NCBI GenBank assembly: GCA_000165345.1
Contig: CM000435.1
Location: forward strand, 320,001-384,000
Direction: 5' to 3'
DNA length: 64,000 nt
Part shown: in pieces, positions 19,901 through 40,652 of the stretch
Layout: each line of letters starts with the position of its first letter
Numbering within the stretch: position 1 is the stretch's first letter
Notes under the pieces: model-generated
Told to the model about the DNA's origin: nothing
What the model saw: only the letters and a program-made list of their open reading frames with translations
Databases searched by the model: none
Made by a program: the position numbers and the translations under genes

Positions 19901-21390
19901 AATCTTGCAGAAAATCCTTCAGCATCTGTTAAATATACCGGACATGGATGAGTTCCAACAAGTTTATCAATTGGAACAGGAAAATCTGATTCCTTAAGTT
20001 CAACAGCATCTTCCAAATCAATGATTTTAAGATCTTTGTAGAAATCTATATCAAGTATATCTTTATATGTGAGATTATAAACATTATTTTCAGTTTTGAA
20101 TTGTTTTGAAATATTTACCAAAATATTTCCTTGATGAAAATCACAATGAATTCTAAAAGATCTAAATCTTTTCCACTTTCCTCTTGAAAAATCTTCTAAT
20201 TCTTCTGGATAGAATGATGTTCCTCCTCTATGAAATAGATCCAAAAGATATAATAATCTTCTATAAAGATTTACTGAGAAAATTATTGTTTTATCAGTAT
20301 AATTATTAATCCAAATATTTATAGAATTCTCCAAAAGTCTTGCTTTAGATTCTACATTAATCTTCTCATCTGACCTTAATGAAGGGAACTTGGAGTCATA
20401 GATTCGAATACTTTCTTCTAAGATTGCATTTACTCTATTTTTTAAATAATTTAAGAGATTTGGATAATCAATAAGTTCTGAAATTATTGAAGAAATTGCA
20501 GGACCATCAATAAACTCCATTAATAGAACATTTCTTGAAATCATTTTTCGATTTGGTTGTAAGAATACGCTATATATGGATGGATGAAGCTTAGATTTAG
20601 AAGCACCATATGTACTTGAGGCCATTCTAGAGTAAATGATCAACTCATGATTAAAATGGTAAAGAAAGTCGTTGGTTCTTCCATCAACTTTTGCTACAAT
20701 TTTCAAAGGAAACTTCTTGGCTTTGTTTGAATGAAGGCATCTCACTCTTAGAGATGATTTCTTTCCGAGTTCATAGACACACCCAGTAAATAGTTCAAAT
20801 CTCTCTTTCTTTTCCTTTTCCTCCTTTTCCTTTCCCTCATCTTTTCCCTCTTCTTTTCCCTCCTTCCCTTCCTCTTCTTTACTTTTCTTCCCCTCATCAC
20901 TCTCCTTCCCCTCATCCCTCCCCTCCCCCTCCTCCTCATCCACCTCCTCCACAGGACTCTTTATCATTGCAAAAATTGTCGAAGCTTCCTTTCCTTGAGA
21001 AGATACCAAAAGCTCTCCAGTCGATGAAACTTTTGGACAATCAATTATGCCCGAAAATTCATTACAAAAATCTTTAAGTCTTAATATACTACATTTCTTA
21101 TAAACCTGACTCAAATGTTTATACCTCTTGTAAAAAACCATTGGAGCATACCAAGTATTTTCTTGTCCTTCTGGAATAAAACATAAATTAATTCGCCTCA
21201 ACTTATCCATTGTTACCACTAAACCATCATCTTGAAAACTATTATTCTTTTCCTCTAGTAATACCTCATTCTCGCTCCCATGAAGCCCAAATAACCTTAT
21301 ACTCCCCTCTGCATAAATAGATCTCGTGATCGGGCACAATACCAAGCAAAATGAGTACACCAAATGAAGTATTTTCTTTCTAATCCTCAT
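16939..21390 (-). CDS. Large (1483 aa) signal-peptide protein with a choline-kinase/aminoglycoside-phosphotransferase-like kinase fold and an acidic EGKE low-complexity insert
   Basis: ATG at 21390; the N-terminus MRIRKKILHLVYSFCLVLCPITRSIYAEG looks like a signal peptide. A kinase-like core is present: KIVAKVDGR (beta3 Lys), LLMEFIDGPAI (hinge), IHCDFHQGNILVN (Brenner HxDxxxxN catalytic loop) and KIIDLEDA (ChoK/APH-type 'IDxE' metal-binding motif in place of DFG). The low-complexity segment is EEGKEGKEEGKDEGKEKEEKEKKE. Confidence 0.55.
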   Translation of the reverse strand: MRIRKKILHLVYSFCLVLCPITRSIYAEGSIRLFGLHGSENEVLLEEKNNSFQDDGLVVTMDKLRRINLCFIPEGQENTWYAPMVFYKRYKHLSQVYKKCSILRLKDFCNEFSGIIDCPKVSSTGELLVSSQGKEASTIFAMIKSPVEEVDEEEGEGRDEGKESDEGKKSKEEEGKEGKEEGKDEGKEKEEKEKKERFELFTGCVYELGKKSSLRVRCLHSNKAKKFPLKIVAKVDGRTNDFLYHFNHELIIYSRMASSTYGASKSKLHPSIYSVFLQPNRKMISRNVLLMEFIDGPAISSIISELIDYPNLLNYLKNRVNAILEESIRIYDSKFPSLRSDEKINVESKARLLENSINIWINNYTDKTIIFSVNLYRRLLYLLDLFHRGGTSFYPEELEDFSRGKWKRFRSFRIHCDFHQGNILVNISKQFKTENNVYNLTYKDILDIDFYKDLKIIDLEDAVELKESDFPVPIDKLVGTHPCPVYLTDAEGFSARLLSNIILISNTLSQTLNTLQDFFLKETKNLIFGNNIVSDWITSSNPDRISEFSDYSFKLKDSILKKLKIHSDNWDRYVDLITNDEVLKPCTSYYHLKYGRKLPPKSQLPCSWLSNILFSKKVCHYLHLSHADSDPSLLKSEDSVIEAELRELFRVSNLTKCHIEENEALNISINNVSSTIQEFLPVVTKINETYWGEWSALFNNQTFDRKFTNINKNFDNTNNEIGITVNSNSKKISDHNSLPCSNHLSVINSKSNMSRNGNKDKILKYDKNKLIFGSIDVPKEKNPSNVLDWVEVNQLVVTENEENNKNLIGKNHSKSEMILQNDTFSKEFDKILIDLMGLAALQRIISFCLKFSSEIDCDNVSSSKIIRDGPISSYIVRTIQNNNSTQLKNSSSDFIQFLDPCVLYSNETNLSNLETQNSMGWLCSKQTQDESLTNETVFKIIVDGRLFLNMNMTFVNQSNNTFAFNDVLWYFGINDTSKYTYKFNNEAVSMIEKHKKDALEFWKLESKIRNMDNIILNPEIDLKDDISLKTVPVLPKMFIFHSKLNTRKVHARVISTLEKEELFVTDKNLYFLPLSEKRSDLSKQISSIVQTGLLSENVFFMINPSNHRVSNLVSKVTNFQNEVFSMVWISYPTLVLSIIESILRSHSYQILISYRALEFLQRFRFKRDYDISIIRTPKNTYSANIQMKNDSKPVICNFSLEKIIIQPYGNNEILKILGELNKFTLYNTSGAKFMKISQVLSDFCSSEKLKNKSDIQSLIKDLVIPSLDPLFTLNNAVDTLSKIKYNSSIEVRRSNWFVKHVCSFISQKLNEINKSNISNEALPTLIQSLNFIIQLKNKIFLNSEFSKCINIDSNNNSNIEFNNNCTVGEYISISEMISSELLDLFIKERNIFKNLTSVNLAQELISYTNDHLQIPPPSQDPPFGGLGHLYKKDYNESYTGSENPNTNSTILYNRNKTIAFDVKWPIIANISDLISSEKNLTKF

Positions 21391-21480
21391 TTTTGCTTAT
21401 TTTGCCCTCTTTTACTCACTTTATCATTTCAAAAATATTTACTCCTTTTCTTTCTTTTCCTAATTTTTATGATCCATGCT

Positions 21481-21513
21481 TTTCCCGCGCATCCTTGTTC
21501 AATTTTCCCGCCC
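21481..21513. promoter_or_regulatory. Two tandem E2F-type sites (TTTCCCGCGC ... TTTTCCCGCCC) ~90-125 bp upstream of the 21390 start
   Basis: Direct reading gives 'tttcccgcgcatccttgttcaattttcccgcccg'. This matches the E2F/DP consensus TTTSSCGC known as an over-represented Cryptosporidium upstream motif. Confidence 0.5.
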
Positions 21514-22217
21514 GTTATTAAATACCTTGGATCTTCATGTTAAAAAATTAGTAAAAGAAATATAATATAAACAAGTTCATTATTTTTGTGTTTAATTTAT
21601 TGATATCATAGATTGAAATGTTTTTTCTTTTTTTTAATTTTTCTTTCTTTTCCTTTTTCTTATTCTGATAAGGATTTGTTTATAATGTTTCGAGATCAAA
21701 AGTTCTAATTACTATTAAGATAAAAATGAAAGAATTAGGGAGAAAAAAGAGTATATAGAAACAGGAAGAGGATATTTTAATATTTTCATTGGAGTTTTGA
21801 TTAATGTGTTTTTTTTCTTTGTTTTTCCCTTTATATAGATATTAATTTGTTGTTATATAAATAGTTGGAAGAAGCGAAAAAAAAAAAAGAACAAGAAAAA
21901 AGAAAACAAGAAAATAATGATAATTAGATGTATGAAATTACCTTTACTTTAGAAATTTTGGTTTTCATTTTTTTATTTATTTTTTATTTATTTTTTTGAC
22001 TTCACACGTATTAATATAATAAGTACCGCAATTGTGTGGTAGTTAAATTGTAATCCTCTCAGCGCTGGACTTTGTGTAAATTAAAGTGAGTTTTGCACTT
22101 TTAAAAGAAAAGAAAATTCACAATTATAAAGAATTGTATTAAAAGTGAATAAGTACAGTGATAATATATAAAGAGTGTGAAAGAAATTTGTATATATTTT
22201 TGTATATAATAGAAAGA

Positions 22218-24232
22218 ATGATTGGGTCAAGAAAATCTAAGGAAGAGTTATACTATAAGATTTCTTTAGTAACAACAATACTTATATTCTGGATTTGTTC
22301 AAGATCTGTAGGTAAGTTGAAATAAAAATAGAAATAAAATAAAACAAAACAAAACAATTCAAATCCCAAATCAACTCTTTAATTTATATATTTGTAGTTT
22401 TATCTATATCTCTCACAACAATATTCTTAGTTTTGTCTTATATTGGAAATAAGTTTGTTTTTGGAACAAAATCTAAATATGAAGAAGATTTACCAAGATT
22501 GATTTCAGATAATGTAATTTTGAAAAAAATCTATGAATTTATTACAAATGGAATTCTTGTTAATTTTGTTTTATCTATTATATATATTACATTATATTTC
22601 ACATTAAGATCAGAAATTAAAGGAATAGAAGTTATTCACAGAGGCATTTTTGATCATTTAGCTCCAAAACTTGCAGAACATTCAAGAAATCTAATAGAAT
22701 CTGGTGAAGGAAAATTTGAAGTTATCTCAAGTAATAGAAATTTTGATGGTATTAGTTTAATTATACCAATTAGAGATGAAGATGAATTTATTAGTAAAAC
22801 AATTTCTTTTACTCTTGGTTTAAATAATAAGAACTTACTTAAAGAAATCATTGTTGTTGATGATTGCTCTAAGAGAGAAGTTTCTGATTTACTTAATAAA
22901 GAACTTCCAAGTTCTTATTTAAAATATATTAAAGTTATTAGATTAGACAAATGTGAAGGTTTAATTAGAAGTCGAATTCTTGGTGCTGATGCTTCTAAAT
23001 CTAGTGTAATAGTATTTATGGATGGTCATTGTAGGCCTAAAGAAAATTGGATTGAACCTTTAATTAATAGACTTAAAGAAAAACCAAAAGCTATAGTTTG
23101 TCCAATGATTGAAGATATAGATAGATATACTTGGAAAGATTTAGGTACTTTTGGATTAAAAATGATGTTTGATTGGAATTTTGAATTTAATTGGTATGAA
23201 GATTTTACTGATGTAATTCCAATAGCATCAGGAGGATTATATGCAATAACAAGAGAATGGTGGGAAGAATCTGGTAAATATGATCCAGGAATGTTAGAAT
23301 GGGGAGGAGAGAATATTGAACAATCAATAAGAATTTGGAGATGTGGAGGAGAAATAGTAGCAGAAAAGAAGAGTAGAGTAGGACATATATTTAAAAGAGA
23401 TCCAAAACCTAATCCAGAGAATAAATTAGTTTTACAAGTACAAAGAAATCAGAAAAGAGCTGCAATGGTTTGGTTAGATAAGAAAAGATATAAATACTTT
23501 GAGACAATTCATGATGTTGTGAAAAGTTTGAATGAAACTCAGAGTGGTGTAGATTTGGAACAAAGACATAGCATTAAAGAAAGATTAAAATGTAAACCAT
23601 TTTCTTGGTATGTTGATAAATTTAGAGCTTCATTTGATAGAGGTGGTTTGCTATTGGATAACTTTAGACATTTTAAACATAGAAAGAGTGGACTTTGTTT
23701 AACAGCTTCTTTAAATGAAGTAGTTACTGGAACAGAAGATAAAGCAGTAGTATTTAAAGAATGTAATGAAAGAGATGATACTCAGAAGTGGAATGTAATA
23801 TTAGGAAGGAGATTAATATTAAATAGAAGAGTAGGATTAGGATGTCTCACAAGGGGACCAAGTAATGTAGTAGAGAATTCAATTTTAAGAGTAGTTCCTT
23901 GTGAATTTAAGAAAGCTTTAGAAGGTTATAATGACTCACAATATTGGAACATAGATGCTAATGATGATTTATTATTTGATCATGGTTATGAAGATTTATC
24001 TCCAATGGAATCTTCAAAGCTTAGAAACTCACTAAGATTGTTTAACAGAATTAATAGTATTCCATTTAGTAATGATGGGAATGATAGAATTTCTGTGAAT
24101 GGAGAATATGCTTTTAATCCATCAAATAGATGTGTCACAAATTTGAATGATAAAGCTGTAATGAAGAGTTGTCCACATGAAGAAAATGAGGACTATATAT
24201 TTGACCCAATAAAGATGGGGAAGTTTATGTAG
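22218..24232 (+). CDS. UDP-GalNAc:polypeptide N-acetylgalactosaminyltransferase (GT27 catalytic domain + C-terminal ricin-B lectin), two-exon model: exon 1 22218..22311, intron 22312..22397, exon 2 22398..24232
   Basis: The catalytic domain has the GT-A DxH-type region (VVDDCS...FMDGHC) and the pp-GalNAc-T Gal/GalNAc-T motif WGGENIEQSIRIWRCGG. A C-terminal beta-trefoil lectin region has Cys pairs and QxW-like repeats (QKWNV, QYWNI). The long ORF has no in-frame ATG before the catalytic domain (the track start 22433 is TTG). An upstream ATG at 22218 encodes MIGSRKSKEELYYKISLVTTILIFWICSRSV, a short tail plus hydrophobic anchor expected for a type II Golgi transferase. It ends at a consensus donor AG|GTAAGT (22312). 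An AT-rich 86-nt intron ends TTTGTAG| at 22397 and restores the downstream frame exactly (phase 1). Confidence 0.75.
22312..22397 (+). other. Predicted 86-nt spliceosomal intron (GTAAGT...TTTGTAG) near the 5' end of the ppGalNAc-T gene
   Basis: The donor gtaagt and the acceptor after a T-rich tract preserve phase between the exon-1 ATG ORF and the catalytic-domain ORF. Confidence 0.6.
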
Positions 24233-24540
24233 AGGAGGTGGGAGGAGTGGATTGGCAGGACTGGGAGAAGAGGATGAGAGAACGAGAGGAAGAGAGGAGA
24301 GGACTGGGAGAAGAGGAGTGGGAAAATAGAGGACGAAAGAAAAGGACGAGAGAATGAGAGGAGAGGACTGAGAGAAGAGGAGTGGGAAAATAGAGGACGA
24401 AAGAAGAGGACGAGAGAATGAGAGGAGAGGACTGGGAGAAGAGGACGAGAGAACGAGAGGAAGAGAGGAGAGGACGAGAGAATGAGAGGAGTACAAAAAC
24501 AGGAAACGAAAAGGAAAGGAAATGAATAGAGGAGTGATAA
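24233..24540. repeat. GA-rich (polypurine on + strand) tandem minisatellite, ~4-5 copies of a ~60-65 bp unit
   Basis: Reiterated 'gagaggagaggactgggagaagaggagtgggaaaatagaggacgaaagaa(g/a)aggacgagagaatgagag' units lie immediately 3' of the ppGalNAc-T stop. The minus-strand ORFs 24122..24496 and 24225..24554 (SSLPLVLSSS..., low complexity) are artefacts of this repeat. Confidence 0.85.
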
Positions 24541-40386: not shown

Positions 40387-40652
40387 CCAGAAAGTAAATT
40401 GTCCAAATTTATACTTACCTTTAGACCAATTCAAAATATTATTTTCTACAGTTTTTACTATATTAGACAACTCAAACTCAATAACTTCAAATGACAACAT
40501 TTCAATTCAAAAGATTAAAATACAAAGAACTATATGAATAAATAAACAAGTTAATTAAGACTAGAATCCTGGTAATTTCTGACATAACGATTGAGCGGCA
40601 AACCAATATCTAAAAAAAGAGTATTGAAAGAAATTGAGGTGAACTTTTGAAA

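Follow-up and report, generated by a model that had tools for sequence, protein, structure and literature searches.

Comparative Evidence for a Spliced 642-aa Model with a 94-nt First Exon of a Cryptosporidium parvum ppGalNAc-T Gene

Results

Gene Structure

The coding sequence of a GT27 polypeptide N-acetylgalactosaminyltransferase (ppGalNAc-T) of C. parvum is best explained as being split by one short U2-type GT-AG phase-1 intron, with a spliced product of 642 aa whose start codon and first hydrophobic helix (H1) come from exon 1; we assign this reading a probability of about 0.87. Splicing from G/GTAAGT (22311/22312) to TTTGTAG (22397/22398) would join the two exons in frame. Exon 1 would contribute the sole usable ATG, H1 and the short basic tail that precedes it, and exon 2 would add two further hydrophobic helices (H2 and H3), a charged loop, a GT-A catalytic domain and a ricin-type lectin domain. 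We infer splicing in vivo from PMC8744675, according to which RNA-seq supports 100% of the introns in the IOWA-ATCC annotation.

The gene occupies positions 22218–24232 on the forward strand of the window, i.e., the whole 64,000-nt stretch of DNA that was analyzed (32% GC). Exon 1 (22218–22311; 94 nt) starts with the ATG at 22218–22220 and encodes MIGSRKSKEELYYKISLVTTILIFWICSRSV plus one base, G. It comprises the basic cytosolic-type tail MIGSRKSKEELYYK, H1 (ISLVTTILIFWIC), SRSV and the first base of codon 32, and its 3' end reads ...TCT GTA G at 22311. The donor AG/GTAAGT lies at the boundary 22311/22312, with GTAAGT at 22312–22317. The spliceosomal intron (22312–22397) is 86 nt long, has a GC content of 18.6% and ends with the acceptor TTTGTAG at 22397. 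Exon 2 (22398–24232) continues in the frame of the long ORF to the stop codon TAG at 24230–24232; besides H2, H3 and the charged loop with YEEDLPR, it carries the GT-A and lectin domains with the motifs DGH (residues 240–242), WGGEN (333–337), QKW (494) and QYW (546). The spliced CDS, join(22218..22311, 22398..24232), comprises 1929 nt. All coordinates of the ATG, the 94-nt exon, the donor, the 86-nt AT-rich intron and the acceptor given in the original prediction hold, and the in-frame join proposed there gives a product identical to the deposited protein QOY40443.1, with independent support from a comparison of ten species.

A TAA at 22340 limits the frame of the long ORF on its 5' side, and the unspliced reading from the ATG at 22218 meets a stop after 35 codons. 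In the 642-aa protein, the next methionine after Met1 is Met239 (VFMDGH), which lies inside the PF00535 region (residues 151–276); as had been claimed, the long ORF therefore has no ATG before the GT-A domain. Since the unspliced reading stops early and no ATG precedes Met239, intron removal would be needed for an active, membrane-targeted enzyme.

The block CAACTCTTTAAT (22372–22383), which contains CTTTAAT, is a plausible branch-point region with a putative role. In an alignment of C. parvum, C. hominis and C. meleagridis it is the sole intron block that is fully kept, and yTRAy-like motifs occur at a similar distance in the remaining species. The first AG 3' of this block is that of the acceptor at 22396–22397.

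The donor octamer AGGTAAGT occurs three times in the window, compared to 1.4 occurrences expected, and by itself is not beyond chance. The arrangement as a whole, with a constant 94-nt exon and a variable intron in ten species, is far beyond chance. The spliced junction GGATTTGTTCAAGATCTGTAGTTTTRTCT was also sought by exact matching in JGI metagenome contigs; no matches came up, which is uninformative on splicing. When the 140 N-terminal residues were used as a protein query, no scored match was returned, probably due to a word-index limitation, since the full-length query matched the gene; this outcome is likewise uninformative.

Family Membership of the Product

By its catalytic domain, sequence motifs and lectin domain, the predicted product is classified as a GT27 ppGalNAc-T. 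A GT-A (GT2-like) catalytic domain is present at residues 151–276 (Pfam PF00535; E = 1.5e-20), and the PDB entries for GalNAc-T12, T2 and T1 matched residues 151–439 with E values of about 1e-50. Both the Mn2+-binding DxH motif (D240-G-H242) and the Gal/GalNAc-T motif (W333-G-G-E-N337) are present, and D240, H242, W333, G334, E336 and N337 are invariant in a family alignment of 34 sequences. The ricin-type lectin domain PF00652 scored 28.5 bits, slightly below the 29-bit cut-off; it is a precomputed match for the cluster representative, and the QxW repeats read QKW (494) and QYW (546).

The AF2 model had a mean pLDDT of 87.4, with values above 90 in the catalytic domain, and the top Foldseek matches were all GalNAc-Ts, aligned over about 530 columns that span the catalytic and lectin domains. 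Animal and Toxoplasma GT27 enzymes (human GalNAc-T2, 2ffu; T12, 6pxu; TgGalNAc-T3, 8uhv/6s24) have the same order, in which the ricin-type lectin domain comes after a GT-A domain that carries DxH and WGGEN, and their likeness to the C. parvum protein reached E values of about 1e-50 and a Foldseek probability of 1.00 over these columns. The review PMC6939170, citing Bhat 2013 and DeCicco RePass 2018, describes active pp-GalNAcTs in Cryptosporidium.

Conservation of Exon 1 and the Intron

The arrangement was compared in ten species, namely C. parvum and nine syntenic loci (C. felis, C. muris, C. canis, C. xiaoi, C. meleagridis, C. hominis, GCA_004936735 and two Logan assemblies). At each fetched locus, a gene of about 1450 aa lies upstream on the opposite strand, and two kinase genes lie downstream. 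Six C. parvum isolates were identical to the window in this region.

The ATG-initiated exon 1 measured exactly 94 nt (31 codons plus G; phase 1) in all ten species. The donor was GTAAGT in eight of them, GTAAGC in C. felis and GTAGGT in C. xiaoi. Intron length varied from 55 to 158 nt, multiples of three not being enforced, and read-through of the orthologous introns led to a stop after 35–71 codons. Every species had an AG acceptor, and splicing to the first frame-compatible AG gave 639–642 aa throughout; C. meleagridis yielded a 642-aa model with the same junction as the window.

Relative to the window, the dN/dS values of exon 1 were 0/0.23 for C. meleagridis, 0.12/0.69 for GCA_004936735, 0.19/1.18 for SRR18693150 and 0.30/2.99 for C. 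felis, and the ratio was far below 1 in all intestinal species. Purifying selection on exon 1 is thus strong. In the comparison with C. meleagridis, exon 1 differed at 4.3% of its positions, all differences being synonymous, while the intron showed 24.6% substitutions and a 21-nt indel (deletion). Such a contrast is what a genuine coding exon with a genuine intron behind it leaves, and the arrangement has been kept since the split from the gastric species C. muris.

The mini-exon is missing from the deposited models of C. xiaoi (589 aa) and GCA_004936735 (544 aa), and that of C. canis is incomplete at its 5' end. The 94-nt exon with its ATG and a GTAAGT or GTAGGT donor is nonetheless found in the DNA of the fetched loci L004 (C. 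xiaoi; 2184–2470), L005 (2113–2301) and L003 (C. canis; 72–221). Since the conserved exon is present in the DNA, the records of C. xiaoi, GCA_004936735 and C. canis could be corrected.

Choice of the Acceptor and the Start Codon

Models of 642, 631 and 647 aa have exon 1 and the donor in common and differ only in the acceptor. Conservation favors the acceptor at 22397/22398 (642 aa) on four counts. First, an AG homologous to 22396–22397 is present in all ten species. Second, the first 33 nt of exon 2 are under coding constraint: they are free of indels in all ten species, their frame is open, the L-T-x-x-F-L motif is kept and dN is lower than dS in every computable pair. Third, the AG at position 22430 is absent in five of the ten species (GCA_004936735, SRR18693150, SRR31860986, C. 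felis and C. muris). Fourth, the AG at 22396–22397 is the first one after CAACTCTTTAAT.

An alternative acceptor in frame, TTCTTAG (22424–22430), would let exon 2 begin at 22431 and give 631 aa, with the 642-aa form minor or absent. A single 23-residue hydrophobic stretch would then replace the H1-SRS-H2 pair, and LSISLTTIFLV, 11 residues of the second helix, would be deleted. Three GenBank models take this site (KAL5367440.1, WKS78812.1 and KAL3126919.1), which is a good acceptor and is kept in C. hominis and C. meleagridis; moreover, the upstream acceptor of C. xiaoi is poor in its pyrimidine tract (GTGATAAAG), and the homologous downstream one (TTTGTTTTTAG) looks stronger. However, the missing AG in half of the species, the coding-like behavior of 33 nt that would be intronic, and the position of the first AG past the CTTTAAT block count against it, as does the evidence-based IOWA-ATCC model, which takes 22398. 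We regard it as quite unlikely that 22430/22431 is the acceptor used or the major one.

Both acceptors, 22398 and 22431, might also be used in vivo, resulting in 642- and 631-aa isoforms. This is conceivable given the two competing GenBank models and the second homologous acceptor in C. xiaoi, and is considered unlikely. If true, 11 hydrophobic residues of the second helix would differ between the isoforms, and the number or length of the spans, the orientation or Golgi/ER sorting could change. Near-identical octamers follow the two acceptors (22395–22443), TAG/TTTTATCT and TAG/TTTTGTCT. Due to these, both joins read V-L-S, which may explain why annotation pipelines choose either acceptor.

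The 647-aa model AAQ95176.2, which is named T4 in GenBank and represents the 90% cluster, would start exon 2 at 22383 and thereby add YIFVV-type residues. Its intron would end with TTTAA rather than AG (boundary 22382/22383). The junction would sit on the putative branch-point block, the insertion occurs in no ortholog model and in C. meleagridis the 15 additional nt show no conservation as coding sequence. A strain polymorphism creating an AG at 22381–22382 was considered as an explanation for this model and rejected, since the sequence at this site is TTTAAT in C. hominis, C. meleagridis and each of the six C. parvum isolates. Thus, the 647-aa model is very improbable.

The chance that the gene is not spliced at all, with the protein starting in the long ORF either at the TTG at 22433–22435 taken by bacterial-code ORF callers (599 aa) or at the first ATG (Met239), is practically negligible, because, although such models exist (the Logan calls of 599 aa and the 404-aa C. 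hominis TU502/CUV07109.1 protein beginning at MDGH), the organism is a eukaryote, a Met239 start would delete half of the GT-A domain including family-invariant residues in E159–D187, and the constraint on the 94-nt exon and its splice signals in ten species would be left unexplained. The TTG was accordingly rejected as the start in this eukaryote with its conserved upstream exon; the doubt that the original prediction had cast on it is borne out, as the 599-aa form occurs only among prokaryote-style calls on Logan contigs.

Deposited Models of the Locus

An exact look-up of the 642-aa spliced product matched two C. parvum proteins over their entire length without a single difference, QOY40443.1 (CPATCC_003292, IOWA-ATCC) and WRK33296.1. 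The start codon, donor, acceptor and stop of these entries are thus the same as in the original prediction. A 642-aa protein with this junction is also deposited for C. meleagridis (POM84101.1). In the 90% cluster, 14 deposited or called versions of the locus were found, and the deposited models name the gene product ppGalNAc-T4. AAQ95176.2, which bears this name, is 99% identical to the 642-aa protein and represents the same gene with the same exon 1 and donor; the difference lies at the junction, where five additional residues call for an acceptor without AG. The 631-aa models with the downstream acceptor come from C. parvum (KAL5367440.1) and C. hominis (WKS78812.1 and KAL3126919.1).

Models of at least nine lengths exist for this locus (404, 545, 599, 631, 642, 647, 669, 717/726 and 738 aa). 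The original 2004 Iowa II model (EAK90598.1/XP_628316.1; 545 aa) is without the whole N-terminus, and the 404-aa C. hominis model begins at MDGH. The 599-aa Logan proteins P0131–P0133, starting at the TTG at 22433, are prokaryote-style calls only. That intronless gene calling would mis-start this gene had been anticipated, and the deposited models of 545, 404, 589 and 544 aa together with the 599-aa calls are cases in point.

The CryptoDB gene cgd7_1310 of C. parvum Iowa II is given as a GalNAc-T that measures 669 aa, has two TMDs and lacks a signal peptide (PMC9713705, Table 2). A length of 669 aa is obtained exactly when the 5' splice of the 642-aa model is combined with a 44-nt intron at 24171–24214 and read through to the TGA at 24355–24357. 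On this length match, the locus is taken to be cgd7_1310/CPATCC_003292 on chromosome 7. The 669-aa model differs from the 642-aa model at the 3' end, where it loses the near-invariant Cys623 and the conserved C-terminus and enters a GA-rich repeat.

[quoted passage not shown] Its removal swaps the conserved C-terminus CPHEENEDYIFDPIKMGKFM, including Cys623, for a Glu/Arg/Gly-rich tail encoded by the repeat (24215–24357). The AG of this intron is absent in C. meleagridis and SRR18693150, and the stop after KFM is conserved. The 44-nt intron probably reflects either an artefact of annotation or a minor isoform. The stop codon is directly followed by an imperfect tandem repeat (24257–24517) that is rich in purines (88% A+G), with a best unit of 64 nt in 3.4 copies (89% match). 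Many C. parvum Logan contigs break about 105 nt past the stop, inside this repeat.

Taken at both ends, the comparative data favor the 642-aa model.

N-Terminal Topology

The N-terminus preceding H1 consists of Met1 and a basic tail of 13–14 aa (RKSK...K). H1 (about residues 15–27) is encoded by exon 1, H2 (31–47) and H3 (83–101) by exon 2, and the exon junction falls within a short polar S-(R/K)-S turn. H2 and H3 are separated by a charged loop with the conserved YEEDLPR, and H3 adjoins the catalytic domain. This three-helix layout is conserved in ten out of ten species. In the AF2 model, helices were predicted at residues 8–27, 31–54 and 83–101 with a break at 28–30, at moderate pLDDT values of 53–75.

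The original prediction had described the mini-exon as the type II membrane anchor. Of this, the start codon, the basic tail and the first helix stand; the anchor as a whole does not, since H2 and H3 are encoded by exon 2 and three helices are present. According to the family description in PMC6994419, classical GT27 enzymes are single-pass type II proteins, in contrast to the C. parvum protein with its three N-terminal hydrophobic helices, in which the layout of a short tail, one TM and a stem was not found. The topology is a typical family trait and not a catalytic requirement, and membership in GT27 stands on other features.

Most likely, as far as the helix predictions indicate, the N-terminus would be cytosolic and three spans would follow, H1 and H2 forming a tight hairpin around S-R-S before H3. 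With the N-terminus in the cytosol and three spans, the catalytic domain would come to lie in the lumen, where its function requires it. Table 2 of PMC9713705 lists two TMDs for cgd7_1310 and three for the paralog cgd6_1960.

Other Features of the Window

Upstream of the gene, a bipartite noncoding motif was observed at 22023–22036 and 22059–22067, consisting of GTACCGCAAtTGTG, a spacer of 15–30 nt and (C)TCAGCGCTG(G)AC. Seven species whose GC contents differ widely share it at a distance of 75–200 nt on the 5' side of the ATG; these patterns did not recover it from C. xiaoi or C. muris. Within the window, GTACCGCAA is present as a single copy, and the site of the bipartite motif is the only one with the palindromic CAGCGCTG. 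The intergenic region upstream of the gene (21300–22500) gave sub-threshold chance matches only in an Rfam scan, none of them for the bipartite motif. As a candidate element of the divergent intergenic region, the motif could belong to the promoter or the 5'-UTR.

On the minus strand, a short ATG-initiated ORF (MLSFEVIEFELSNIVKTVENNILNWSK) at 40413–40500 ends with AG/GTAAGT (donor 40420–40413) in an ORF-poor stretch. It may be another 5' mini-exon, belonging to a small multi-exon gene.

Discussion

The 642-aa gene structure is already public, from an evidence-based annotation, and is not new. The enzyme family and the ppGalNAc-T4 isoform are likewise already published, Cryptosporidium ppGalNAc-T4 being attributed to Bhat et al. 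2013 and DeCicco RePass et al. 2018 as cited in PMC6939170 and PMC5549699. The contribution made here is the cross-species case for 642 aa over 631, 647 and 669 aa and the correction of the topology, with no further new biology.

The value of this result lies in annotation quality. O-GalNAc is present on the vaccine-candidate mucins gp40, gp15 and gp900 (PMC5549699), and the right 5' end is needed for expressing, tagging or knocking out this O-glycosylation enzyme.
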